A stretch of 62,411 bases of DNA from an uncultured Anaerolineaceae bacterium (GTDB lineage Bacteria; Chloroflexota; Limnocylindria; Limnocylindrales; CSP1-4), in the NCBI GenBank assembly GCA_964513505.1, contig CAZENL010000004.1, positions 1 through 62,411 on the forward strand, given 5' to 3'. This document shows, one piece after another, positions 66 through 58,528 of this stretch; the stretch's first letter is position 1; each line of letters begins with the position of its first letter. A program made the translations under genes and the position numbers. The notes beneath the pieces were generated by a model that was not told where the DNA came from, ran no database searches, and saw only the letters and a program-made list of their open reading frames with translations.

Positions 66-434
66 TCAGGCCGGCGAGAAGACGCCCTCGCGGAGCCAGC
101 CATGCCAACCACACCCGGCATATTTTTCCGCCGGGTTCTCTGGATTGTGTGAAAGGCAGTTGATCGAGGGATGCAGCGTGGGCTTTTCGATATTGCCATC
201 CCAAGCCCAGACCTTGTTCTCGGGCGGCTTCTTTCCGTTGACGATCCAGATCGAGCCGCAGTTTCCATGCCCGAGCGGGCAACCGAAATTGAAGCGCCCG
301 CGCTGGCCTGGCGCCGGCGGAGCTGCCGCGCTCTGCCCCATAGTCTCGAAACGGAACTCGCCCGGAGCTCGCGGGAATGGCGTCATCACCGGATGCCCGG
401 GATCGAGAGCAATATGTTTTCCCTCGACGCTCAT
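66..434 (-). CDS. DUF6527-like Cys/His protein
   Basis: Start moved to MSVEGK (ATGA overlap at 431-434). Motifs FGCP..GNCG, WAWDGNIEKPTLHPSI, CGWHGWLREG. Confidence 0.7.
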   Translation of the reverse strand: MSVEGKHIALDPGHPVMTPFPRAPGEFRFETMGQSAAAPPAPGQRGRFNFGCPLGHGNCGSIWIVNGKKPPENKVWAWDGNIEKPTLHPSINCLSHNPENPAEKYAGCGWHGWLREGVFSPA

Positions 435-1585
435 GCCGCGATCAGCTTCCGCAGCTCGGGCCCACAATGCACATCGACGACAAGGTGGATGCGCTCCACA
501 TCGGATGGATTGACCACCGCATGAGGCTTGCGGGTGTCGATATAGCAGAGCGTCCCTTGCGGGAAGTGGAGCTGCCATTCCCGCCCATCGAGCGCCCAGG
601 AGCGGAAGACGCAGCGCGGATCGGTGACGATCGGGATATGCAGCCGGGCGATCTGGCCATCCTTGGTCCCGGCCTCGGGATCGGTGATATCGCTATGGCG
701 GGTGAGCTCGCCATTGCCGGCGGCCAGGCGCATGAAGCGCACGCGCTGCTTCTTGCCGGGGATGCGATCGACCAGCGCCATGGTGCTGACCATGATCTGC
801 CCGAGCGCCGTCAAGCCGCACTCGGCCTTCATGCGCTCCGGGTTCTTGGCCTTCCAGTCTTTCGACATTTCGGAGGGCTTGATGATGAAGCTGGTATCGG
901 ATGGATCGAAGCCGGCCAGGGCGAAGCTCGTCCAGCTCTTGCGCTTGTTGTAGCTGGAATAATGCTGAGCCCACCGGCCGCTCTCGATGTGGTCGAGCTC
1001 GCGCCGCACGCCGGCGAGATCTTCGGGGCTGGCGGCGCCATCGCCGCGGAGGCTGATCACCTTGATGCCGGGCACATCGGCCGGATCGAGCTGCTCGATG
1101 ACCGGCGGCGGCCCAAACCACCAAAGGCCCTTTAAGTCCGAGCTGGCGGCGATCTTCGTCATGGCGCGCCGGAAGCCCATGGTTTCGAGAAGCAGGCACA
1201 GCGCCGGGTTCTCGACATGGCCCTCCAGCCAGGCGCGCTTCGCGCCGGAGCGCTCGATCAGGGTGTTGATGATCTTCCGCTTCCCGCCAGGCGAGCCGGC
1301 GATCGAGCGGATGAAAAGATCGCCAGCCTCGATCTTGGCGACGCGGCCGGCGAAATCGGTGTGGCTGGAGCCGATCGTATGGTGGCGAAACATGGCGATC
1401 GCTTCGAGCTTGCCGTCGATCGCCGTCCACATGAGCTGCCCGGCCGCCCTGGCATCGGCGACGTCACGCTCTTTCGGCAGGCCGAAGGCGCCGTAGCAAT
1501 GGGCTTTGAACTCGGCGCGGTAGAGCGCGGCCGCTTCCTTGAGGAAGCTCATGGGAAATCCGCGGGACCATTCCGGCGCCGTCAT
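431..1585 (-). CDS. GNAT-like domain fused to Asp/Asn beta-hydroxylase-like 2OG-Fe(II) oxygenase
   Basis: N-half AWLEGHVENPALCLLLETMGFR fits the GNAT beta5-alpha4 end. C-half has RVRFMRL, HSD, RLHIPIVT and IDTRKPHAVVN..RIHLVVD (HxD...H jelly-roll). Confidence 0.7.
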   Translation of the reverse strand: MTAPEWSRGFPMSFLKEAAALYRAEFKAHCYGAFGLPKERDVADARAAGQLMWTAIDGKLEAIAMFRHHTIGSSHTDFAGRVAKIEAGDLFIRSIAGSPGGKRKIINTLIERSGAKRAWLEGHVENPALCLLLETMGFRRAMTKIAASSDLKGLWWFGPPPVIEQLDPADVPGIKVISLRGDGAASPEDLAGVRRELDHIESGRWAQHYSSYNKRKSWTSFALAGFDPSDTSFIIKPSEMSKDWKAKNPERMKAECGLTALGQIMVSTMALVDRIPGKKQRVRFMRLAAGNGELTRHSDITDPEAGTKDGQIARLHIPIVTDPRCVFRSWALDGREWQLHFPQGTLCYIDTRKPHAVVNPSDVERIHLVVDVHCGPELRKLIAA

Positions 1586-1586
1586 G

Positions 1587-1796
1587 TCAGCCGATATCGA
1601 TATCGGCGCGAGAGAGCATGTAGATCAAAAGGAGCAAGCAGATGAGCAGGATCGCCAAGAAGGCGACCGCGACCCATCCGGCGGTCCACCACCAATTCAG
1701 TCCGAAAACATGATGGGCCAACCAGCCGACGAAGCCGAGGAGTCCGGCGATGAGGGCCGCGCTGGTGATTTGAAATCCGAGAGTTTGCCAGTCCAT
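1587..1796 (-). CDS. small two-TM membrane protein
   Basis: Start MDWQTLG; two hydrophobic stretches; fills the gap between neighbours. Confidence 0.55.
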   Translation of the reverse strand: MDWQTLGFQITSAALIAGLLGFVGWLAHHVFGLNWWWTAGWVAVAFLAILLICLLLLIYMLSRADIDIG

Positions 1797-1828
1797 GAGC
1801 CACGCCCCCTTGATGCCGAGGCTCAGCT

Positions 1829-2569
1829 TTACACCGCCGGCGGCCGATCGCCCAGCACATTCCACATGAGCCGGCGGCCGCGCCCGCGCGCCATGAGCTG
1901 CTCCCATGCTTTGCGATCGTAGTTTCCGCAGCTCGGGAACGGGGAGCTGGCCGGCGTCTCCTCCGCGAAATCATAGGGGCAGGGCACCAGCTCGACGTTT
2001 GGCGGGAAGGCCTGCTTCTGATTCCGGCTGGCCAGCCCGACAGTCACGCCAAAGACCCGGCTCTGGGGGAAGGCCCGGCCGAGGCAGCGCGCCAGCATCC
2101 CCGAGCCCGTCGCGCACCAAACCTCGTCCACCGGCCCAGCCTGAGCGGCCACCCGGGCCATGACCGCCTCGAAGGGGCTGGTGGCGCCGGGGATATCGAA
2201 GCCCAGCGGCAGGAAGAGCGCGCCAGCCTGGGCGGCATAAGACCGGGCCCGGTGCTGGACAACGCTCATGCGGCCGGCCGGGACTTGGAAGAGCGTCGCG
2301 CCATTGCGGAAGGCCGCCTTCTGGCGCCAGTGGAATTCCTTGCGCTTGGCATAAAACAGCGTGACGGCCACGCCCTTGCGGCGCCCATAGACCGAGAGCG
2401 CATAGGGCGCGCCGCCGCAAAATGGACCGCCGAAGACGATTTCCTTCGCGCCGGCGACGATGTGCGGGAGAAACCTGATCTTGGAGCCGCCGTCGAGCAA
2501 ATCCTCGCGGACAACCAGCACGCCGCCATGCTCCTCGATGATCGGAGCGGCTTCGTACCACTCAGGCAT
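1829..2569 (-). CDS. PLP-dependent fold-type II enzyme (ACC deaminase/D-Cys desulfhydrase-like)
   Basis: Start MPEWYE. VVREDLLDGGSKIR (Schiff-base Lys) and VWCATGSGML (phosphate loop). Confidence 0.7.
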   Translation of the reverse strand: MPEWYEAAPIIEEHGGVLVVREDLLDGGSKIRFLPHIVAGAKEIVFGGPFCGGAPYALSVYGRRKGVAVTLFYAKRKEFHWRQKAAFRNGATLFQVPAGRMSVVQHRARSYAAQAGALFLPLGFDIPGATSPFEAVMARVAAQAGPVDEVWCATGSGMLARCLGRAFPQSRVFGVTVGLASRNQKQAFPPNVELVPCPYDFAEETPASSPFPSCGNYDRKAWEQLMARGRGRRLMWNVLGDRPPAV

Positions 2570-2939
2570 TGCCGGCGGCTTCTGCCAGCGTGAGGAAGCT
2601 GCTCGGCCGAGCATTGTCGCGCTGCCGCTCCATCGCCAGCTTGCAACACTTTTCGAGCTGGACGAGGAGCTCCTCATGCTTGTCGATGCCGAGCTGCTCC
2701 TTCAGAGCGGCGTTCATCGCCTTGGTGCTGCGATCGATATCCTCCCGCGTCTCGCGGATGAGCTGGCGGCCGACGCCTGGCGGGAACAAGTGCTTGCACC
2801 CATCGCATTGCAGCGCCGCCGCCCAGCATCCTTCGGCCACATCGTATTCGGCGCCGAAGAGAACCTCGCCGCTGCCCTTGGTGATGACGAAATGGAGGAA
2901 CGCCTTGAGGTTGGCCTTCAGCGCGGCGGTGTCAGTCAT
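2562..2939 (-). CDS. hypothetical protein with CxxC
   Basis: Start MTDTAA, ATGA-coupled; contains CDGC. Confidence 0.6.
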   Translation of the reverse strand: MTDTAALKANLKAFLHFVITKGSGEVLFGAEYDVAEGCWAAALQCDGCKHLFPPGVGRQLIRETREDIDRSTKAMNAALKEQLGIDKHEELLVQLEKCCKLAMERQRDNARPSSFLTLAEAAGNA

Positions 2940-3133
2940 GTCGTCTTCCTTAAACGCTCGGCGGCATCGGCCGCAATCACTTCCGCATCGGTCGCGAGCT
3001 GGAGCCATCCTTCGGCCACGGATGGATAGGGCGTCTCGGCGGCGCGTTGCCGGCAGCGCTCAGCCAACAGGCCCATCCGCTCTGGAATGCCAGGGAGCGC
3101 GGCGCGGGCGGCGGCGAGATCGGCTTCGATCAA
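2936..3133 (-). CDS. hypothetical protein
   Basis: TTGA overlap upstream and ATGA overlap downstream. Confidence 0.55.
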   Translation of the reverse strand: MIEADLAAARAALPGIPERMGLLAERCRQRAAETPYPSVAEGWLQLATDAEVIAADAAERLRKTT

Positions 3134-4749
3134 GTTATCTCGCCCCCGATATCCTTGGCCGTCACCTTCTCGCCGAACTCGCCCGGGGGAGCTGCTGGCT
3201 CCATGCCTTCCGGCTCGCCGAACTCGACGGGCCCGATCGCCTCGGTGGCTTTGACAGGATCGCCCTTCACGAAGATCAGAACGTCTTGATGGGTCTTTCC
3301 CAGCTTGCGGCTCGTCTCGAAGGCCCGGCCGGCGCGCATGGCGAGAGAGCCGGCGCTGGTGACGAGGATCGCATGGTTGTAGAGGCGCAGCCCGGCCTCC
3401 TCGAAGGCCCTGATCGTGTCCATGTGGAAGCCGCGGTAAAGACCCTTCTCATCGCGAAGATCGCCGACAACGAAGATGGCGAAGCGATCGTCGGCCAGAA
3501 GCTCGCAGCTCGCCTCGATGATCTTGTTGTAGGCCGCGATGAACTTCCCATATTCCATCGTGCTCAGGTCTTTGGGATCGTCGCTGTAGCGCTCGAGATC
3601 GGAATATGGCGGGCAGGAGAAGATCAGGTCGGCCGGCATTCCCTTCGCGCCCTTAGTGAGCTGACCGATCTTGAGGCTATCGCCTTTGATCCATTCGGGC
3701 GCCGGCGCCTTGCACAGCTTCTTGCCCTGGGCGCGGTTGGCGGCGATCTGCTCTTCCCGAAGATCGACGCCCATGTAGCGGCGCCCGAGCTTGCTGGCGA
3801 CGATGCCGCGCACGGAGCCGCCGGCGAAGGGATCGAGCACCAGCCCCTTGGGCGGGCAAAACCAGCGATAAGCCAGCTCGGCCAGGACCGGATCGAAGAT
3901 CGAAGTGCCACCGCCTGACTCTTCGTTTTCTCCGCCAGGGCCTTGGCGATAGATGCTATTGGGACCGCCGCCGCCGGGCGTGGCATCGCGAGCCGCTGTA
4001 TCGGCCTTTTTATTGCCGAACTCCTTGAGCGCCTTCTGCTCTATCGCGTCATCATCGAGGCCGTCAGTGCGGCACTTCGCAACATAAGCCACGACATTTC
4101 GGTAATGACCGGGAATGACAAGGGCGAGACGATCTTGCAGTGACTTCTTGAGCAGGTTTCCGCCGCGGCCGACTTCGCTCTCGATCCCCAGCGCCAGCCA
4201 GGCGCGCTTCCGATCCTGCCACCAGCCTTCGCGGGCATTGAGCACGGAGAAGGGCACGGCGAAGAACTTGTCGGCGAGGTTGCCGATCGTCGGCTTGCGG
4301 CCATCGGTGGGCGCGGCCGGGGCGCCGCTGGAGAAGACATTGAGCTCGGCCAGCTCGAAGCCGGTCAGCGAAAGATCGAAGGCGGCGGTTTGCAGCTCGC
4401 CGAGCTCGGTGCGCAACAGGCCCTCGTCCCACCCGCCGCTGAGCGTGCTCTTGTTGTCCCAAAGCCGGTAGGCCTTAACCTGATCGGAGTTCCAGCCGCG
4501 CGCCACCAGCACCGGGACTTCCTCCATCGGCGGATCGAGCTGGGAGGCGGCGAAGCGGCGATGGCCGGCGATGATCCCGCCAAGCTCATCGACGAGGATC
4601 GGATACGTCCAGCCATATTCGTCGATCGCGCGCCGGGCCGCGAGGATATCGGCCTCGCTATGGGTGCGGGCGTTCTTGGCATAGGGCTTGATGCGCTCGA
4701 CGCCCCAGAGCTCGACCTTCGTCGCGGGCCAGTCCTTCGGATCGATCAT
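3130..4749 (-). CDS. ParB/Srx domain fused to amino (N4/N6)-type DNA methyltransferase with CPPY motif
   Basis: Start MIDPKDW. ParB: IKPYAKNARTH, YGWTYPILVD, IIAGHRR. MTase: VLDPFAGGSVRG (motif I), LIFSCPPY (motif IV). Confidence 0.85.
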   Translation of the reverse strand: MIDPKDWPATKVELWGVERIKPYAKNARTHSEADILAARRAIDEYGWTYPILVDELGGIIAGHRRFAASQLDPPMEEVPVLVARGWNSDQVKAYRLWDNKSTLSGGWDEGLLRTELGELQTAAFDLSLTGFELAELNVFSSGAPAAPTDGRKPTIGNLADKFFAVPFSVLNAREGWWQDRKRAWLALGIESEVGRGGNLLKKSLQDRLALVIPGHYRNVVAYVAKCRTDGLDDDAIEQKALKEFGNKKADTAARDATPGGGGPNSIYRQGPGGENEESGGGTSIFDPVLAELAYRWFCPPKGLVLDPFAGGSVRGIVASKLGRRYMGVDLREEQIAANRAQGKKLCKAPAPEWIKGDSLKIGQLTKGAKGMPADLIFSCPPYSDLERYSDDPKDLSTMEYGKFIAAYNKIIEASCELLADDRFAIFVVGDLRDEKGLYRGFHMDTIRAFEEAGLRLYNHAILVTSAGSLAMRAGRAFETSRKLGKTHQDVLIFVKGDPVKATEAIGPVEFGEPEGMEPAAPPGEFGEKVTAKDIGGEIT

Positions 4750-5006
4750 GGCTCGATCCCCGGCATCTTGGCGTGGTGGGTGAAATGGTTGGCCTTGTCC
4801 GTGATGGCGGCGATGGCGATCGGCGTCACGCCATAGAGCGGGTCGTTGGCCCAGCCCGTTCCAACCCAGCAATTATTCTTCGCATCCCAGCGCAGCACGA
4901 AGGCCCAGCCTTCAGCATTGAAGCCGAGCCATTGCCCGGGAGCGCCAGGCGGCGGGAGGCCGGGATCGATGCGATAACCGCCGGTCATCGAGCACATGCC
5001 GAGCAT
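4746..5006 (-). CDS. hypothetical protein
   Basis: Start MLGMCS after an RBS-like AAGAAGG; ATGA-coupled to the MTase. Confidence 0.55.
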   Translation of the reverse strand: MLGMCSMTGGYRIDPGLPPPGAPGQWLGFNAEGWAFVLRWDAKNNCWVGTGWANDPLYGVTPIAIAAITDKANHFTHHAKMPGIEP

Positions 5007-5008
5007 GG

Positions 5009-5257
5009 TCAGGCCTTCTTCGCTGGATATTGGATTTCGACGGGAATGCCGCGCACCCGATATTCCTCCTCCAGCGCCCGGGAGAAGGGAATGTGGCCGG
5101 CGACGCTGGAGCGATTCTCGCCCGAATAGAGCACGCACCGGGTCGCGTTGATCGGAAACCATGAAGCCCAGACTTGGCCAGTCTTCGGCGCGCGGATCAC
5201 AGCCTGGATGGGCCATCCCATGATTGCGGCGATCGTGGCGTCCGGGCTTCTGCTCAC
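5009..5257 (-). CDS. hypothetical protein
   Basis: GTGA overlap with the upstream gene; tiles the operon. Confidence 0.5.
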   Translation of the reverse strand: MSRSPDATIAAIMGWPIQAVIRAPKTGQVWASWFPINATRCVLYSGENRSSVAGHIPFSRALEEEYRVRGIPVEIQYPAKKA

Positions 5258-5634
5258 TTCGGCCTCTGGCTTGGAAGCAGCGGCGGGGTCTTTTCCTCCG
5301 GCTTCATGTCCCCGGCATATACCAAAGCGCGCATGTCGTGAAGATGGTCGCGGAGGGCCGCGACTTCCCGGCCGTGGTCAGCCCAGCCGGCGGGGCGCAT
5401 CCCGTTCTCCCAAGCGCAATCGATCGCCGCCTGAAGGAAGGCGCGGGCCTCGTCGGCCTGCCCCCATCCTGAGCGGATCGCCTCGGGGCCGGGCGACATG
5501 GGCGCGATCGTCTCCATCTTGAAGCCGGCGACGAATTCCACCGGATCGCCGAAGGAGTGCTCGCCGCCCTTGCGGATGAGAAGGCGCGAGCTGGCGTCGA
5601 TCATCCGGCTATCGAGGAACATCTTCCAGCTCAT
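5254..5634 (-). CDS. hypothetical phage protein
   Basis: 126 aa with phage-like composition; tiles the operon. Confidence 0.65.
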   Translation of the reverse strand: MSWKMFLDSRMIDASSRLLIRKGGEHSFGDPVEFVAGFKMETIAPMSPGPEAIRSGWGQADEARAFLQAAIDCAWENGMRPAGWADHGREVAALRDHLHDMRALVYAGDMKPEEKTPPLLPSQRPK

Positions 5635-20533: not shown

Positions 20534-21994
20534 ATGCAATCAATTCAGAATGTCGCCCTCGACAAGCTCCGCTTCGGCCATGAATTCAAAGGCGGCTCGC
20601 TTAATGTCCGGCAATCCGGCCGCGATGATGTTGACGCCCTGATCGCTTCCATCAAGGCCGAGGGGCTGCTCCAGCCTCTCGCCTCATGGGAGCGTGAAGG
20701 CGTTTTCTATATCTTAGACGGCAACCGCCGCCTGGCCGCGCTGAAAAAGATCGGCAAGCCAGTGCCGGAGAATTGGCTGCATGTCATCGAGGCCGACAGT
20801 ATCGAAGACGCCCAGGCGAAGAGCTTGGCGGCCAACATCATGGCCGTGCCGCTCGATCCGGTTGACCGCTTCGAGGCCTTCGCCTCTCTCCAGCCGAAGT
20901 TCACCGCCGAGCAGATCGCGGCGCGATATGGCACCACGAAGAAGCTGGTCGAGCGCAGCCTCATCCTCGCAAAGCTCTCGCCGACGATCAGGACGGCGCT
21001 CCGCAAAAACGAGCTCGATTACGAGGCCGCCTGCGCCTTCACCATCGAGCCCGATCCGAAGCGCCAGGAGGCCATCTTCAAGAAGCTGAAGGCGCGCGGA
21101 AACTGGTGCCTGCGTCGCTATGATATCCGCGAGGCAATCACCGGCGATCAGGATGATATCGCCGGCATGTTGAAATTCGTCGGCGCCGCGGCCGCCAAGG
21201 AGGCGGGCGTGACGGAAGTGGACGATCTATTCGCCGAAAAGGGCGACGCGCCCAAAGTGGTGCAGAATGTCGGCGCGCTGGAGAAGCTCGTCCAGGCGAA
21301 GATCAGCAGCACGAAGAGCAAGCTGCTGGCCGAGGGCTGGGGCAGCGTGGTGATGGAAGACAGCCTCGAATATGGCTGGGAGCGTTGGGCCCGCTCGCCG
21401 GCAGCAAAGGGCGCCGATCGCAAGAAGCTCATGGTGGTGCTGGAGCTCAAAGGCGGAGTTCTCAAGCAGCATCTGGGCCTCCATAAATCGAAGCAGCGCG
21501 TCGCCGTCGAGCAGAAGGCCGAGAAGAAGAAGGCCAGCCCGAACGCGCTGAGCAATGCGCTCAAGGAGCGGCTGGAGTACGTTCTCATCAAGGCCACCCG
21601 CACGGCGATCTTGAACGAGAGCTGGAAAGACCCCCGGGCGGCCATCTTCACCGCGATCGTCGCTGCGGATATTGACCGCCATCGCTTCATCCAGCAGATG
21701 CCAACCTATTTGGGCTCGAAGCTGGCCAGCATCCGGGACTCAATATCGGCCGATGTGATGAAGGCGGCGCTGCTCAAGCACTTCGATCCGAAGGACTACT
21801 TCCCGCGCGCCCCCAAGGGCGTGGTGCTGAAGGCGATCGCGGAATCCCTTGTCCAGGCCCCGGCCGATCTGAAAACGAAAACCAAGGCCGTGATCTGGAA
21901 ATTCGCCATCGCCCATGTCGGCAAGACCGAATGGTTGCCGCCTGAGCTGCGCACCGCCCACTATGCCGCCAAGAAGGGCGCGAAGAAGCGCTGA
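20534..21994 (+). CDS. ParB/RepB/Spo0J-family protein
   Basis: LIASIKAEGLLQPL, YILDGNRRLAAL, ANIMAVPLDPVDRFEAF, followed by an HTH. Confidence 0.85.
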   Translation: MQSIQNVALDKLRFGHEFKGGSLNVRQSGRDDVDALIASIKAEGLLQPLASWEREGVFYILDGNRRLAALKKIGKPVPENWLHVIEADSIEDAQAKSLAANIMAVPLDPVDRFEAFASLQPKFTAEQIAARYGTTKKLVERSLILAKLSPTIRTALRKNELDYEAACAFTIEPDPKRQEAIFKKLKARGNWCLRRYDIREAITGDQDDIAGMLKFVGAAAAKEAGVTEVDDLFAEKGDAPKVVQNVGALEKLVQAKISSTKSKLLAEGWGSVVMEDSLEYGWERWARSPAAKGADRKKLMVVLELKGGVLKQHLGLHKSKQRVAVEQKAEKKKASPNALSNALKERLEYVLIKATRTAILNESWKDPRAAIFTAIVAADIDRHRFIQQMPTYLGSKLASIRDSISADVMKAALLKHFDPKDYFPRAPKGVVLKAIAESLVQAPADLKTKTKAVIWKFAIAHVGKTEWLPPELRTAHYAAKKGAKKR

Positions 21995-22407: not shown

Positions 22408-24261
22408 ATGAGCAAAACGGCGATCCCGGACGAGGCCCTCGACGATCGGCTGGGCTTCGTCGGCACCAGCGGCAGCGGCAAAACCTACGGCGCGAAGGGG
22501 CGCGTCGAGCGCCTCCTCAAGCTGGGCCATCGGGCGGTGATCGTCGATGCTCTCGATGTGTGGTGGGGGCTTCGCCTTTCGCCGGATGGCAAGAAGGCCG
22601 GCTTCGATGTGGCGGTGCTGGGCGGCAAGCACGGCGACATGCCGATCAACGAGCATTCGGGCGCCCTGATCGGCGAGGCGGTGGCCACCAGCTCGGAGAG
22701 CTGCATCGTCTCGCTCGGCGGGATGAAGACGCAGGCGGCCAGGCAGCGCTTCATGCTGGCCTTCCTCGACGCCGTTTATGAGCACACCGATCCCGATCGC
22801 GGCGATCCCTATCATTTCGTGGTGGATGAGGCCGATCTTTGGGCGCCGCAAAAGCCCATGGGGAATGAAGCGATGCTCTGCCACTTGATGGAGGAGATCG
22901 TGCGGCGCGGCCGCGTGAAGGGCTTCATCCCTTGGGTGATTACCCAGCGGCCGGCGGTCATTAACAAAAACGTGCTGAGCATGGTGGACGGGCTTATCGC
23001 CTTGAAGCTGACCAGCTCGCAGGATCGCGACGCGCTCTGGGCGTGGGTCGAGGGCCAGGGCGATCGGCAGGAGGGAAAGGCGATGATCGCCCAGCTCCCG
23101 GCGCTCCAGCGCGGCGAAGGCATCATCTGGATACCCAGTCGCCACATTCTGAAGACGGCGCAATTCCCGGAGAATTCGACCTTCGATAGCTCGCGCACCC
23201 CGAAGCGGGGCGAGAAGAAGATCGACGCCAAGCTCCAGCCGCTCAATATCGAGGCGCTGAAATCCCGGCTCGTCACCGTCGAGCAGGAGGCGAAGGCGAA
23301 CGATCCCAAGTCCCTCAAGATCAGGATCGCCGAGCTGGAGCGCGAACTGGCGAAGGCGTCCATCCCGAAGGGCGGCTTAAAGGAAATCGATCATGGCATG
23401 ATCTTTGCCGCCGCCCAGGAGGCGCGCGCGATCGGCCGGGAGGAAGGCTTCCTCGTCGGCCACCATGTCGGCGCCGGACTGGCTGGAGTGGTCGGCAAGT
23501 GGATGCGCGAGAGCATCAAGGGGATCGGCGATCAGCTCAACGGCCGGCTGGACGAAGGGATCGCGCTCGCCCAGGCGCAAGAGTTTACCGAGGAGCAGGC
23601 AGGCTTTGCCGGTGTCGGCGGCGAGGCGGTGCTCAAGAAGCTCAGGAAGGGCCTGATCGTCGAGAAGGGCAGCGAGCGGGCGAAGCTCTTGTCGGCCGCT
23701 CCAGCCGCGCCGGCTCCGCGCGCCGCTACCGACCGGATGCCGCTCCCGGTCCGGGCCGCCCCGCCGCCCGCCGCCATCGATCCCGAGCTCGGCCGGGCAA
23801 AGCAGGCGATCCTCGATGCTCTGGCATGGTGGGAAAGCATCGGCCGCCACGCGATCGATAGAGTGGTGCTGGCCTTCCTGATCGGCGTTTCCAACAAGAG
23901 CTCAGGGCATCAAAACAACCTCGGCGCCCTCCGCACCGCCGGCCTGATCGAATATCCCCCAGGCGGCGGCATGGCGGAGCTCACGCCGGCGGGCCGGGCC
24001 AAGGCCAACCCGCCCGAGGCGGTGCTGGATTCCGCCGCCCTCCAGCAGCGCATCCTCGGCAAGCTCAACCCGCCCATGCGCGCGATCGTCGAGCTGCTCC
24101 TCGATGGCCGCGAGCGATCGAAGGATGAGCTGGCCGAAGAGCTGGGCGTCTCGGCGAAATCCAGCGGCCACCAAAACAATCTCGGCTCACTTCGCACCAT
24201 GGGCTTCATCACCTATCCCAAAGCCGGATCGGTGGTGATCGGCTCTTCCATGTTTATCTGA
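22408..24261 (+). CDS. HerA/DUF87-like P-loop ATPase with tandem C-terminal wHTH domains
   Basis: GTSGSGKT, FVVDEAD, RGRVKG..VITQRPA; KSSGHQNNLG occurs twice at the C-terminus. Confidence 0.8.
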   Translation: MSKTAIPDEALDDRLGFVGTSGSGKTYGAKGRVERLLKLGHRAVIVDALDVWWGLRLSPDGKKAGFDVAVLGGKHGDMPINEHSGALIGEAVATSSESCIVSLGGMKTQAARQRFMLAFLDAVYEHTDPDRGDPYHFVVDEADLWAPQKPMGNEAMLCHLMEEIVRRGRVKGFIPWVITQRPAVINKNVLSMVDGLIALKLTSSQDRDALWAWVEGQGDRQEGKAMIAQLPALQRGEGIIWIPSRHILKTAQFPENSTFDSSRTPKRGEKKIDAKLQPLNIEALKSRLVTVEQEAKANDPKSLKIRIAELERELAKASIPKGGLKEIDHGMIFAAAQEARAIGREEGFLVGHHVGAGLAGVVGKWMRESIKGIGDQLNGRLDEGIALAQAQEFTEEQAGFAGVGGEAVLKKLRKGLIVEKGSERAKLLSAAPAAPAPRAATDRMPLPVRAAPPPAAIDPELGRAKQAILDALAWWESIGRHAIDRVVLAFLIGVSNKSSGHQNNLGALRTAGLIEYPPGGGMAELTPAGRAKANPPEAVLDSAALQQRILGKLNPPMRAIVELLLDGRERSKDELAEELGVSAKSSGHQNNLGSLRTMGFITYPKAGSVVIGSSMFI

Positions 24262-24640: not shown

Positions 24641-24828
24641 AGCCGGTCAAGCACAGCGAGATTTGCGCGCGGTGCGGCAAAGCCCGGCAAGTGATCTGGC
24701 ATGGGCGCTATACTGCGTCGGAATTCTACCCGCCTGGCGCTTGCACCCAGACAGACCAATGCGAGCGGGAAATGCTGGCGGCCGCGAAGAAGATCGAAAA
24801 ATCAAGAGGAGAGAAGAATGCGAGTTGA
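24637..24828 (+). CDS. small Cys-rich protein
   Basis: Start MKPVKH (ATGA); CARC...C...C. Confidence 0.5.
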   Translation: MKPVKHSEICARCGKARQVIWHGRYTASEFYPPGACTQTDQCEREMLAAAKKIEKSRGEKNAS

Positions 24829-25570
24829 AACAGATGTGATGCTGGTGCTGGAGCGGTCGGGCACGCATGGGAACGAGCTGCACTTGCCGCCAGAGAAGCT
24901 CGATCGGCCGATGTATGAGCGCGTCGCCAAGGTGATCGAGGCCTGCGGCGGCAAATGGAACCGAAAAGCGAAAGCCCACCTGTTCGACGGGCCGGCGGTC
25001 GATGCGATCGATGCGGTGCTCTTGAACGGCGAAGTCGCGAAGCCGCAGGATTTTGGCTTCTTCGAGACGCCGCCCGAGTTGGTGGTGCGCGTGATGTACG
25101 AGGCGCAAATCAGCGAGGGCATGGAAGTGCTGGAGCCCTCGGCCGGCACCGGCCGCCTAGCAGATGCGGCGCGCGATGTTGGCGCTAATGTCCTGTGCGT
25201 CGAGCTCCAGCAAAAGAATTGCGAGGCGCTCCGGGCCAAGAAGCATCACTTCATCCCCACCACGGATTTCCTCACCTTCGAGCGGCCGATCCTGCCGGCG
25301 CGCTTCGATCGCGTGGTGATGAACCCGCCCTTCGCGCGCTCGGCCGATGTGAAGCACATCTTGCACGCCTATTCGATGCTCAAGCCAGGCGGCCGTCTGG
25401 TGTCGATCGCCGGCGCCGGCGTCCTCTTCCGGCAGGACCGGCTATATCAGGAGCTCCGCCAGCTCGCGGCCGCGCACGGCTCGATGGAGCCGCTCCCGGA
25501 GGGCAGCTTCAAGAGCGCCGGCACGATGGTGAATACGGCGCTGGTGATTCTCGATGCCGATCCGGCCTGA
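24818..25570 (+). CDS. N6-adenine-type SAM-dependent methyltransferase
   Basis: FGFFETP, VLEPSAGTG, VVMNPPF. Confidence 0.85.
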   Translation: MRVETDVMLVLERSGTHGNELHLPPEKLDRPMYERVAKVIEACGGKWNRKAKAHLFDGPAVDAIDAVLLNGEVAKPQDFGFFETPPELVVRVMYEAQISEGMEVLEPSAGTGRLADAARDVGANVLCVELQQKNCEALRAKKHHFIPTTDFLTFERPILPARFDRVVMNPPFARSADVKHILHAYSMLKPGGRLVSIAGAGVLFRQDRLYQELRQLAAAHGSMEPLPEGSFKSAGTMVNTALVILDADPA

Positions 25571-55905: not shown

Positions 55906-57510
55906 TCAGCTTCCCATATCGGGGCGCGGCGCCGTCACGATGATCGGGGCCATGATCGGCGCTGTCATTCCCTCAATCTCCAAAATATCATTGAACGCGC
56001 CCGATGCGCCGTCAACCTGATCGTCATGTGGCGCGCCGGGGAAGAGCTCCAGCTCCTCCAGAAAGGTTTCGTTCCAAGGCCCCTTCACAAGATAGACGTT
56101 TTCGCCTTCCGCTTGCACCGATAGGGGCTCGGCCCGATCAACCTTGCTGCCCGTCTCGGGCCTGATCCGCACCTTCCAGCCCGCCAACATTTGAATGAAG
56201 GAGAGCTTCTGAGATTTGCCCGCCTGGCCCGGGTCTTGGGGAAGGCGAACGTAAACGTCTTTGCCGTCTGTCTCGGCGGTGTTCCTGATCGTGTTCGCGA
56301 CCAGCTTCGCGGAACCACGGAAGCGGATCACATGCTCGATATAGTAGGCCCCGCCGGATTTGACCATCTTCAGGCCGACCGTCCAGTCAGGATCGGTGCC
56401 CGGCGTCCGCTCGGAGGCCGCCAAATCCCAGCGGCGAACCCGGATGCCCTTCGCCGGCGCGGCGCCAACGATGGCGAAATTGCCCCGCTTGAAGAGGCCG
56501 CCTTCGCGCGGCACCGGCCGCTGCTGATACTGGCCGGCCGCGGCATAGGAGCCGAGCGTGGCCTTGTCGCGCTCGACCGCCGCCTTCGGGAAGCGGGCTG
56601 GGAAGAGCAGCTCGCCCTCCTCGGTGCGCGGATCGACGAAGCCGATTTCCGGGATCGAGCAGCGCCGGGCCAGCTCGAATTCCATCGGGCACATGAAATG
56701 AACATAGCCGCCCAGGGCGATGATCACCCCCGAAAGATCGTTGGAGTGAAGCCGCTGCATCACCACCACGATCACGGAGGCCATCGCGTCATTGACGCGG
56801 CTCGTCACCGCCTCGCGGAATGTCCGCGCCGTCTTTGCCCGATCGGTGTCGCTCTCGGCCGTATCGACGGAATGGGGATCGTCGATGATCACGCGATCGC
56901 CGCGGCCGACCGTCATGCTGGCCATCGGCACGGCCATTCGGCCGCCGTGCATCGAATTCTCGAAGTCAGCCTCTCCGGTGCGGATCAGCGTGATTTTGTC
57001 GCCCCATAGGGCCTGATACCAAGGCGAGGCCACAAGATCGCGCATCTTGCGGGAATCGCGCGTCGCCCATTCCTCCTTGTAGGAGGCGGTGAAATATCGC
57101 AGCCCCGGCTTGCCGCCCGGGCCCCATTCCCAAGCCGGCCAGAGCACCCCGATGAGGAGGGATTTCATCATGCCCGGCGGAATGTTGATGAGCAGGCGGG
57201 TGATCTTGCCGGCCGTCACGGCTTCGAGGAGCGTGCAGATCCACCGGATATGCCAGTTATCGACGAAGGCGGTGGTGGGCTCCAGCACATGCCAGGCGCG
57301 CTTGACGAATTCGTAAAAGGTTTTGCACTCGGCGCGGATGGCCTCGGCGTTGGCCTTGGTCTTTTCTAGCTCTTCAGCCTGTAAGCGCCGGACGCGCTCG
57401 GCCTTCAATCGTAACGCCCACTCCGCACTTGCTGAGAAGCCACGCGAGCTGCTCAAATTCCTTGACGGTGAGCTTGGTGAGGTCGAGGTCATTGAAAAGC
57501 GGCGCGCCAT
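55906..57510 (-). CDS. terL: terminase large subunit
   Basis: LLINIPPGMMKS, VIIDDPH, RRWDLAAS, HDDQVDG. The true start may be TTG at 57408. Confidence 0.95.
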   Translation of the reverse strand: MARRFSMTSTSPSSPSRNLSSSRGFSASAEWALRLKAERVRRLQAEELEKTKANAEAIRAECKTFYEFVKRAWHVLEPTTAFVDNWHIRWICTLLEAVTAGKITRLLINIPPGMMKSLLIGVLWPAWEWGPGGKPGLRYFTASYKEEWATRDSRKMRDLVASPWYQALWGDKITLIRTGEADFENSMHGGRMAVPMASMTVGRGDRVIIDDPHSVDTAESDTDRAKTARTFREAVTSRVNDAMASVIVVVMQRLHSNDLSGVIIALGGYVHFMCPMEFELARRCSIPEIGFVDPRTEEGELLFPARFPKAAVERDKATLGSYAAAGQYQQRPVPREGGLFKRGNFAIVGAAPAKGIRVRRWDLAASERTPGTDPDWTVGLKMVKSGGAYYIEHVIRFRGSAKLVANTIRNTAETDGKDVYVRLPQDPGQAGKSQKLSFIQMLAGWKVRIRPETGSKVDRAEPLSVQAEGENVYLVKGPWNETFLEELELFPGAPHDDQVDGASGAFNDILEIEGMTAPIMAPIIVTAPRPDMGS

Positions 57511-57943: not shown

Positions 57944-58528
57944 CTAACCCATGAGCGCAATCGACTCTCGCGGAATCGAAATAGCACCTTTGCGCCCGAG
58001 CATGTCAAGCAGGATGCCGACCCGCTCCCGTCGATCGAAGGCGACGAGGCCGACCAATCCTTCGAGCGGCCCATCGATCACGCGGACGCGCGAGCCGGGT
58101 TTAAGCTGTTGTTTTTTCGGCGCGAGGAGCCGGAAGACGCCGCCAGAGGATGCCATCGCCTCCTTGAGGGCCGGAACGACCCGCGCCGGCAGGGCGAGCG
58201 GCGCCTTCGGTCGAAAGCGCCGGGCGATTTCCTCGCGGCTGGTCGGAATGCCGCTCGCTCGCTGGATGCCGAGGATCGTATGGACGCCCTTGAGCTGGAG
58301 GATTTTGGGCCAATCGTCCTCCGCATCCTCGGCGGCATCGAATTCGGCGAAGATGTAGCTGGGATAAAGCGGCCGCTGGACGATCGACTTCCGGCGGGCG
58401 TGGCTGATTTCCCGCTCCATGAGGGGGAGGAAGCTGCCGAAGCGCTGCTCTGGGATTTCGGCGATCGCTTGGCTGACTCTGGCCTCGTTGCCGGGAACGG
58501 TCTGGACAACATACCAAGCCCGCGCCAT
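57944..58528 (-). CDS. NusG/RfaH-family transcription antiterminator
   Basis: NGN domain WYVVQTVPGNE, PLYPSYIFAEF; KOW domain LKPGSRVRVIDGPLEGLVG. Confidence 0.9.
   Translation of the reverse strand: MARAWYVVQTVPGNEARVSQAIAEIPEQRFGSFLPLMEREISHARRKSIVQRPLYPSYIFAEFDAAEDAEDDWPKILQLKGVHTILGIQRASGIPTSREEIARRFRPKAPLALPARVVPALKEAMASSGGVFRLLAPKKQQLKPGSRVRVIDGPLEGLVGLVAFDRRERVGILLDMLGRKGAISIPRESIALMG

Follow-up and report, generated by a model that had tools for sequence, protein, structure and literature searches.

The question raised by positions 66-4749 of contig CAZENL010000004.1 (assembly GCA_964513505.1, from an uncultured Anaerolineaceae bacterium) is which reaction could join a DNA methylase-like protein to enzymes that handle amino acids. 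The whole stretch of DNA that we analysed, 62,411 nucleotides, is called the window in this study. It is a tailed-phage genome (~63 kb) that encodes a portal protein, a large terminase, a DnaB-type helicase, RecT and an exonuclease, and its terminase is nearest to those of Rhizobium phages and of Erythrobacter phage R6L/ZS04. The operon in question combines a ParB domain fused to a methylase-fold transferase with the motif CPPY, a pyridoxal phosphate (PLP) enzyme, and a fusion of a GNAT acyltransferase domain with a 2-oxoglutarate (2OG)/Fe(II) beta-hydroxylase, here called GNAT-hydroxylase. Our answer, to which we give a probability of roughly 0.55 and which we draw from sequence comparisons, is that the transferase would put the 3-amino-3-carboxypropyl (acp) arm of S-adenosylmethionine (SAM) on a DNA base, and that the PLP enzyme, the hydroxylase and the GNAT domain would tailor this arm. 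A sister clade of the transferase would transfer aminopropyl from decarboxylated SAM.

The genes of the operon recur together in other genomes. A pattern scan of IMG/VR for relatives of the window PLP enzyme found 542 contigs that encode one, and synteny was counted in the 80 best loci and three cultured phages. The transferase adjoins the PLP gene in about 74 of the 82 PLP-selected loci, most of the exceptions being truncated contigs, and the GNAT-hydroxylase is present in 44-48 of the 82 (~60%), usually in the order transferase, GNAT-hydroxylase, PLP enzyme. The original prediction had named co-occurrence of the homologues as a computational check, and they clearly do co-occur, with the PLP enzyme often fused to the transferase. 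The scan of bacterial genomes and metagenome-assembled genomes gave 75 loci, 74 of which match the window PLP enzyme in tblastn. Around 60 of these 74 also have a transferase match, usually just upstream of the PLP gene, and a GNAT-hydroxylase was found in none of the 74. These loci are mostly from Rhodobacterales and Hyphomicrobiales, with further examples from Bacteroidota, Vampirovibrionales and cyanobacteria, and candidate prophage-like loci are found in Alphaproteobacteria, Bacteroidota, Cyanobacteria and Actinobacteria. The computation shows that transferase, PLP enzyme and GNAT-hydroxylase form a conserved, separable module, which is widespread in tailed phages and prophage-like loci.

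Besides separate genes, there are several other arrangements of the module. In Erythrobacter phages ZS04/R6L, in Pseudanabaena phage Pam4 and in at least 60 protein clusters, the transferase polypeptide harbours the PLP domain as an insertion, between '...GVDLREEQI.ANRAQ' and 'PEW..GDS...FSCPPY', which means between motif I/II and motif IV. The window PLP enzyme is 37% identical to the domain inserted in the ZS04/R6L transferase. In Microcystis phage Mae-JY30, the ParB domain, the transferase and the PLP enzyme are encoded by three overlapping genes. Three gene contents were found: transferase with PLP enzyme, transferase with GNAT-hydroxylase and PLP enzyme, and transferase with GNAT-hydroxylase and no PLP gene within 7 kb. 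Since all three forms exist, the product of the transferase must already be a substrate for amino-acid-type enzymes. The transferase gene is the element common to all module variants. It is the core of the module, as the loci of the last form indicate, and the PLP enzyme and the GNAT-hydroxylase are separable accessories. Family members that stand alone, with no partner gene, were found in Listeria, Enterococcus, Haloarcula and M. abscessus phages. In total, nine cultured phages carry one module variant or another, including Mycobacterium phages Vincenzo and AlanGrant with transferase and PLP enzyme.

The evidence on the donor comes from a sister clade with a different partner. In Croceibacter phage P2559S and Pseudomonas phage ZRG1, a SAM decarboxylase gene (Pfam: PF02675, E 1e-19 to 1e-23) directly follows or overlaps the gene of the ParB-CPPY-transferase. 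The sister subfamily is found on 421 IMG/VR contigs, from which 80 loci were fetched. AdoMet_dc lies directly downstream of the transferase in 74 of these 80 loci, compared to 0 of 234 other loci, and no PLP or GNAT-hydroxylase gene was found in the decarboxylase-type loci. The sister clade and the window clade share ~40% identity in the catalytic half and the signature CPPY.DLE.YS, and both clades together account for roughly a thousand IMG/VR contigs.

The two clades differ in the loop of motif I. Wherever it was readable in ~160 open reading frames (ORFs) linked to a PLP enzyme and/or a GNAT-hydroxylase, the loop is FAG-G-S-V-R-G, apart from a few ORFs with conservative variants such as GGSIRG and GGPVRG. 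In the decarboxylase clade it is FAG-D-S/T-V-F-G (82 ORFs, 76 of them with the decarboxylase alongside). The glycine-rich loop of spermidine synthase contains an Asp that forms a hydrogen bond with the terminal amine of decarboxylated SAM (PMC6514230), and the established role of this cofactor is that of an aminopropyl donor (PMC10491745). A gain of Asp together with a loss of Arg is what would be expected in the sister loop if the cofactor bound there lacks the carboxylate. Decarboxylated SAM is therefore the most likely cofactor of the sister clade. By homology to the sister clade, intact SAM would be the cofactor of the window clade and the carboxylated arm the group transferred: this clade has the Gly/Arg loop and no AdoMet_dc partner in the 234 loci, and without this partner and the loop Asp it would use SAM itself as acp donor and not decarboxylated SAM. 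What matters in the covariation is which residues are exchanged and not how many ORFs show it. The pair of spermidine synthase and SAM decarboxylase resembles the sister clade in its class-I methylase fold, loop Asp and decarboxylase partner, whereas the window transferase has a Gly/Arg loop, no decarboxylase partner, a PPY motif and a ParB domain, and its presumed acceptor is DNA and not a polyamine. We also considered the PLP enzyme as a decarboxylase of free SAM that feeds the transferase. This was rejected because the PLP-linked clade keeps the Gly/Arg loop and does not have Asp/Phe.

When ORFs within 3 kb were clustered, the conserved neighbours were limited to genes of the PLP enzyme, the GNAT-hydroxylase, the SAM decarboxylase (AdoMetDC) and the terminase. 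The module usually adjoins terminase genes in both transferase clades, and the terminase is the commonest shared neighbour (108 loci). In several variant loci, a further small methylase gene, either a C5-methylase fragment or of N6_N4 type, directly follows the module (L170:8146-8808, L203:8112-8726 and L234:3326-3967).

The GNAT-hydroxylase is also found in a second context, which bears on its substrate. In Mycobacterium phage LilMcDreamy, gp4 is a full-length homologue with both domains (28% identity, 92% coverage). It is encoded next to gp3, an amino acid:DNA transferase (Pfam: PF18724, E 2.7e-12), and is followed by terminase genes, and gp1 of the same phage is ParB-like. Most or all of this gene series is present in eight metagenomic contigs at 43-75% identity, and three complete metagenomic contigs have all four genes in unchanged order. 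In the related phage Vincenzo, a ParB-CPPY-transferase and a PLP enzyme of the same family as that of the window occupy the same genomic slot. Amino acid:DNA transferases attach amino acids to DNA in thymidine hypermodification, and PLP decarboxylases and GNATs then act on the product (PMC8989533). The recurrence beside such a transferase links the GNAT-hydroxylase with amino-acid stubs carried on DNA and with their tailoring. From this second context and, independently, from the SAM decarboxylase sister clade and its loop changes, we infer that a side chain of SAM other than methyl is probably transferred, in line with what the original prediction had suggested. In the window operon (66-5634), an amino acid:DNA transferase is absent, as a tblastn search with the LilMcDreamy enzyme as query gave matches only in L159-L169. 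Furthermore, its ORFs have no Pfam or PHROG match to the families of aGPT-Pplase, amino acid:DNA transferase or 5-hydroxymethyldeoxyuridine kinase; genes for the synthesis of 5-hydroxymethyldeoxyuridine were not specifically searched for. LilMcDreamy gp2 (L159:855-1787) is annotated as a queuine tRNA-ribosyltransferase, which may be wrong. It lacks a TGT Pfam match and has a weak similarity to Tet/JBP dioxygenases (Pfam: PF12851, E 2e-3; NgTet 5cg8, E 0.85).

Judged by its motifs, the transferase family is a permuted relative of the N6-adenine/N4-cytosine (N6A/N4C) methylases, with Cys in place of the canonical D/N/S. The window protein has the SAM-binding motif I and the acidic ribose-binding residue, and its Pfam match (Pfam: PF01555) spans profile positions 165-217. 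Among solved structures, its nearest relative is TTHA0409 (PDB: 2zie), an amino-methylase of the beta class whose two halves match the window protein in swapped order; the motif I of both proteins align, as do TSPPYWTLKRY of TTHA0409 and SCPPYSDLERY of the window transferase. In the beta class, motif IV comes before motif I, whereas the window transferase has motif I before motif IV, and where (D/N/S)PP(Y/F/W) is expected it has FSCPPY. [ST]CPPY is present in 70 of 73 related loci, and every cultured-phage relative with a readable motif has CPPY (15 of 16 loci; ZRG1 was read separately). The beta-class N6A/N4C DNA methyltransferases, such as TTHA0409, CcrM and M.PvuII, are the best sequence match and share motif I and the PPY + 'xxLxRY' segment, but they differ from the window transferase in motif order, in the residue replaced by Cys in motif IV, in the loop (GSGTT versus GGSVRG) and in having no amino-acid-tailoring partners. 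Some transferases of the family are longer (~650-790 amino acids), and no extra Pfam domain was identifiable in them. One metagenomic protein (P0280, 1129 amino acids) consists of a ParB-transferase with PLP insert and contains an intein (Hint_2 and LAGLIDADG_3) in the C-terminal catalytic half.

The window PLP protein scores 34.1 bits (E 2.4e-8) against PALP (Pfam: PF00291), which is 0.9 bit short of the gathering cut-off of 35 bits; homologues of it do exceed this cut-off. It also matches PHROG 7093, 'threonine dehydratase', with an E-value of 9e-32. Compared with solved structures, the family profile finds O-acetylserine sulfhydrylase (OASS), D-cysteine desulfhydrase (DcyD) and 1-aminocyclopropane-1-carboxylate (ACC) deaminase at E-values of 1e-3 to 6e-3. 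The Lys of GGSK.R and the G-S-G are invariant in 13 diverse members, fused forms included, and are also found in Vincenzo gp2.

The hydroxylase domain reaches 39.9 bits against its Pfam family (Pfam: PF05118; cut-off 22.6 bits), and all of 30 aligned sequences have the H-x-D...H iron triad and the Arg. Its structural model has a double-stranded beta-helix fold and matches 4p7w, 7v4f and AspH in Foldseek (E down to 1.6e-10). In structure, the domain is most similar to L-proline cis-4-hydroxylase, Cpz10 (TM-score normalised to target 0.72) and AspH, of which Cpz10 is the closest small match. By sequence, the GNAT domain was detected very weakly or not at all with Pfam, NCBIfam and PHROGs, and a profile search of the PDB gave only RimI at an E-value of 0.73. 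The AlphaFold model of the domain (pLDDT 92-94) has the GNAT fold (alpha1-alpha2-beta2-4-alpha3-beta5-alpha4-beta6-7) and exclusively GNAT N-acetyltransferases among its top 50 Foldseek matches, with E-values down to 7e-7 and TM-scores mostly of ~0.5-0.63. The structural neighbours are Ard1/RimI, ArsN/PAT/BAR/YncA and SbzI, which acetylate the alpha-amine of 2-amino-4-X-butanoates and of protein N-termini. For motif A, which binds the acyl-CoA pyrophosphate (Q/R-x-x-G-x-G/A), the candidate segment is IAGSPGGKRK, in which the A-G alone is nearly invariant. The enzyme assignments of the original prediction stood up: the SAM-dependent transferase fused to ParB through the PHROG and Pfam matches given in Table 1, the PLP enzyme of ACC-deaminase/D-Cys-desulfhydrase fold through its PHROG match, invariant Lys and GSG loop, and the 2OG-Fe(II) beta-hydroxylase through its Pfam score and invariant residues. 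The acyltransferase half was recovered through AlphaFold and Foldseek alone.

We propose that the module is a system of post-replicative DNA hypermodification built around a ParB-tethered enzyme of methylase fold. The ParB domain would hold the transferase on DNA, SAM would be bound via its carboxylate, and a base would be flipped into the CPPY pocket. The transferase would then alkylate the base, probably at an exocyclic amine, with the acp arm of SAM, and methylthioadenosine would be released. On the resulting amino-acid stub, the 2OG/Fe(II) domain would hydroxylate the beta carbon, as Cpz10 does on an acp-nucleoside, and the GNAT domain would acetylate the alpha-amine. The PLP enzyme would act on the free alpha-amino-acid end. 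The most economical guess for this step is decarboxylation to aminopropyl, as carried out by Mur23, because PLP enzyme and SAM decarboxylase are mutually exclusive counterparts in the minimal two-gene systems; decarboxylation after transfer would yield the same product as the sister clade, where SAM would be decarboxylated first. Deamination to a 2-oxo acid would be an alternative. This decarboxylation step is a guess and the weakest part of the model. The module likely protects phage DNA from restriction and other defences that target nucleic acids, and possibly also neutralises charge for packaging.

Several steps of this proposal have precedents. Cpz10 hydroxylates the SAM-derived acp arm on a uridine nucleoside (PMC9814697). 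Tyw2 is an example of acp transfer by a Rossmann-fold enzyme, and aminopropyl transfer from modified SAM is precedented as well (PMC10491745). Both a PLP decarboxylase and a GNAT that act on DNA-borne amino acids are also known (PMC8989533).

There are also observations that speak against acp transfer followed by tailoring. The covariation of G/R versus D/F splits two clades and may be a single evolutionary event instead of repeated co-adaptation, and the loop Asp is equated with the Asp of spermidine synthase by motif alignment. The stand-alone CPPY members could be plain methylases with the same motif. Moreover, the likeness of the hydroxylase to Cpz10 is at family level only (~19% identity), and we know of no decarboxylase among the fold-type II PLP enzymes, so that the proposed PLP step would be unprecedented for the fold. 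Finally, in the publication on R6L, a phage that carries the module, the fused gene is named a CcrM-like methylase and the PLP insert goes unmentioned.

Much of the annotation would fit another explanation, namely that the ParB fusion is an ordinary orphan N6-adenine/N4-cytosine methyltransferase and that its neighbours manage the cofactor or are unrelated auxiliary metabolic genes. Similarities in Pfam, NCBIfam and PDB are all to DNA amino-methylases, the published and database annotations that we consulted name the genes methylases or methyltransferases, and there are the stand-alone members without partner. The PLP enzyme is similar to ACC deaminase and D-Cys desulfhydrase, whose substrates are small free amino acids, and might for example destroy inhibitory S-adenosylhomocysteine or a SAM breakdown product such as ACC. 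We nevertheless regard a plain methylase as unlikely, since it would explain neither the GNAT-hydroxylase partner and its recurrence beside an amino acid:DNA transferase, nor the SAM decarboxylase partner, which would consume the methyl donor, and the matching loop changes. The Cys in place of the motif IV D/N/S across the family and the PLP insertion within the catalytic domain, which argues for tight coupling, count against it too. The PLP domain inserted beside the cofactor pocket can also be read in another way, in which the PLP enzyme makes the electrophile and the methylase fold merely binds the cofactor and flips out the attacking base. The electrophile would be vinylglycine-PLP made from SAM, as for Mur24, or aminoacrylate made from serine or O-acetylserine, as in the alkylation of heterocycles by cysteine-synthase-like enzymes. 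Mur24, Cpz13 and SbzP do transfer the acp arm of SAM to an amine via PLP (PMC10491745), and in our data the PLP gene is the commonest partner and, of the proteins with solved structures, the O-acetylserine sulfhydrylases match the PLP enzyme best in sequence. However, there are loci with transferase and GNAT-hydroxylase that lack a PLP gene within 7 kb, there are stand-alone transferases, the sister clade has no need of a PLP enzyme, and the SAM-binding motifs of the transferase are fully conserved. Furthermore, the Mur24-type enzymes are ACC-synthase-like (aspartate-aminotransferase type) and taken as fold type I, whereas the window enzyme is of fold type II. We find PLP-driven alkylation decidedly improbable, and a Mur24-like PLP enzyme as obligatory transfer catalyst was downgraded on account of the PLP-less variants and the stand-alone transferases.

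The acceptor could also be something other than DNA, such as a small molecule, a polyamine, a protein or RNA, for example in a phage polyamine pathway for packaging in which ParB only localises the enzyme. SAM decarboxylase and aminopropyltransferase do make up the spermidine pathway, the module lies beside terminase genes in both clades, and there are weak Pfam similarities to RNA guanine-N2 methylases. Against this, nearly all members carry a fused ParB/Srx domain that binds DNA, the nearest relatives are DNA amino-methylases with the PPY base-binding motif, the second gene cluster with a GNAT-hydroxylase includes an amino acid:DNA transferase, and no polyamine-pathway partners beyond the decarboxylase were found near the module. 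Of the explanations considered, an acceptor other than DNA seems to us the least probable.

The proposed transfer of a SAM side chain to DNA can be compared with several known systems. In the caprazamycin/muraymycin pathway (Mur24/Cpz13, Mur23, Cpz10), the acp arm is likewise put on a nucleoside amine and then beta-hydroxylated by a PF05118-type enzyme or decarboxylated by a PLP enzyme. The product is however a small-molecule antibiotic and not DNA, and the transfer is catalysed by an ACC-synthase-like PLP enzyme with no methylase-fold protein. The RNA acp transferases Tyw2 (wybutosine), TapT (acp3U) and Tsr3 (m1acp3-pseudouridine) also place the acp arm of SAM on a nucleobase, Tyw2 with a Rossmann methylase fold, but they act on tRNA or rRNA and involve no tailoring enzymes; the window transferase is likened to them by its proposed chemistry. 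CmoX of the carboxymethyl-cytosine system of Synechococcus phage S-B43 is a phage methylase homologue that puts a non-methyl group from modified SAM onto DNA as a hypermodification handle, and differs as a member of the C5-cytosine methylase family with a carboxy-SAM donor and a carboxymethyl adduct (PMC12783734). Thymidine hypermodification (ViI, M6, PaMx11, SP10, PhiW-14; PMC8989533) is similar to the proposed module in being post-replicative, in having an amino-acid-like group on the base that PLP enzymes and GNATs then act on, and in its combinatorial gene sets in viral metagenomes. In contrast, the entry enzyme of the window module is a SAM-binding transferase of methylase fold, and its PLP enzyme is of fold type II and not of the classical decarboxylase fold. 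The module also has a 2OG/Fe(II) beta-hydroxylase, which a text search of PMC8989533 did not find.

DNA hypermodifications of phages shape the co-evolution of phages with host defences, defeat restriction enzymes and CRISPR, and have repeatedly been a source of enzymology and tools. To our knowledge, the amino-acid-type DNA hypermodifications known so far all begin from 5-hydroxymethylpyrimidines, and we know of the use of SAM as alkyl donor (acp or aminopropyl) only from RNA, polyamines and natural products. In the literature that we searched, there was no description of the ParB-methylase/PLP/GNAT-hydroxylase module or of acp- or aminopropyl-DNA, nor of a DNA counterpart of the RNA acp transferases. 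It is a tentative claim, which we put at slightly below even odds, that the CPPY ParB-transferases form the founding family of DNA side-chain alkyltransferases, with an acp clade tailored by PLP enzyme, hydroxylase and GNAT and an aminopropyl sister clade, and that they produce new, widespread cationic or zwitterionic base modifications. The general principle is already known from thymidine hypermodification, where phages place an amino-acid-like group on DNA and then process it; new for DNA would be the chemistry of the first step and the family of its enzyme. If true, this would be a second, independent route, in which DNA itself receives an acp or aminopropyl group from SAM through a methylase-like enzyme. 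As the module is abundant and annotated as 'DNA methylase', predictions of methylomes and of defence evasion for the carrier phages may be wrong. The nine cultured carriers make a direct test by nucleoside mass spectrometry possible, and if the proposal is confirmed, there would be enzymes for placing amines or carboxylates on DNA in a sequence-directed manner.

In the window, seven genes are annotated on the minus strand of 66-4749, with frames backed by third-position GC (GC3 0.74-0.85). The gene starts were refined, and the coordinates in Table 1 are those of the refined genes. The junctions are, in gene order, TTGA, ATGA, an 8-nt overlap, a 32-nt gap, a 1-nt gap and ATGA. Such overlaps and short gaps indicate a translationally coupled operon, which agrees with its original description as mostly overlap-coupled.

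Table 1. Genes, domains and motifs of the module in the window.
Feature	Position	Strand	Remark
ParB-transferase	3130-4749	-	539 aa; core enzyme
ParB/Srx N-terminal domain of transferase	~4324-4722	-	PHROG ParB families, E 5e-43
Class-I methylase-fold domain of transferase	~3190-3927	-	Pfam N6_N4_Mtase, E 5e-11
Transferase motif I LDPFAGGSVRG	3805-3837	-	residues 305-315
Transferase ribose-binding GVDLRE	3754-3771	-	after motif I
Transferase motif IV FSCPPY	3604-3621	-	residues 377-382
Transferase family signature DLERYSDDPKDLS	3562-3600	-	sequence motif
orf65	2936-3133	-	TTG start overlaps transferase stop codon
orf125	2562-2939	-	translationally coupled, between orf65 and PLP gene
PLP enzyme	1829-2569	-	246 aa; stand-alone minimal PLP fold-type II
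Schiff-base Lys in GGSKIR	2474-2491	-	PLP enzyme
Phosphate loop TGSGM	2096-2110	-	PLP enzyme
Family motif NYDRKAW	1904-1924	-	PLP enzyme
Two-transmembrane ORF	1587-1796	-	69 aa; between PLP and GNAT-hydroxylase genes; lineage-specific
GNAT-hydroxylase	431-1585	-	384 aa fusion
GNAT-fold N-terminal domain	1091-1585	-	AlphaFold + Foldseek
GNAT beta4-alpha3 loop IRSIAGSPGGKRK	1274-1312	-	GNAT domain
GNAT RimI-like segment WLEGHVENPALCLLLETMGF	1172-1231	-	GNAT domain
2OG/Fe(II) beta-hydroxylase domain (PF05118)	434-1033	-	C-terminal half of fusion
RHSDITD (H-x-D)	680-700	-	hydroxylase domain
Distal His in RKPHAV	515-532	-	hydroxylase domain
2OG-binding Arg in ERIHLVVD	473-496	-	hydroxylase domain
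DUF6527 gene	66-434	-	ATGA overlap with stop codon of GNAT-hydroxylase gene

Besides the three enzymes, the operon has four small or extra ORFs. Neither orf65 nor orf125 has a family match among the Pfam and PHROG profiles, and the DUF6527 protein was identified with an E-value of 1.7e-9 in Pfam and of 5e-18 with PHROG 15183. As conserved parts of the module, orf65, orf125, the two-transmembrane ORF and DUF6527 were all rejected, because tblastn gave no matches to them in related loci. The two-transmembrane ORF is the only one of the four that is kept in the nearest relative, L317, where an ORF of equal length (L317:6749-6958) has the same position and a shared C-terminal '..LS..D.DIG' with no BLAST similarity; tblastn found it absent from the other related loci.

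Elsewhere in the window, on the strand opposite to the module, another ParB-like protein (HTH_ParB) and another class-I methyltransferase are encoded at 20534-21994 (+) and 24701-25570 (+). This methyltransferase is similar to domains found in giant methylase proteins of phages (PHROG 9133, 15406). A 617-amino-acid protein at 22408-24261 (+) has a partial match to large-terminase PHROGs (E 3e-14), and the bona fide large terminase is encoded at 55906-57510 (-). Directly upstream of this terminase gene, at 57944-58528 (-), a NusG-like protein (Pfam: PF02357, E 2e-15) is encoded.

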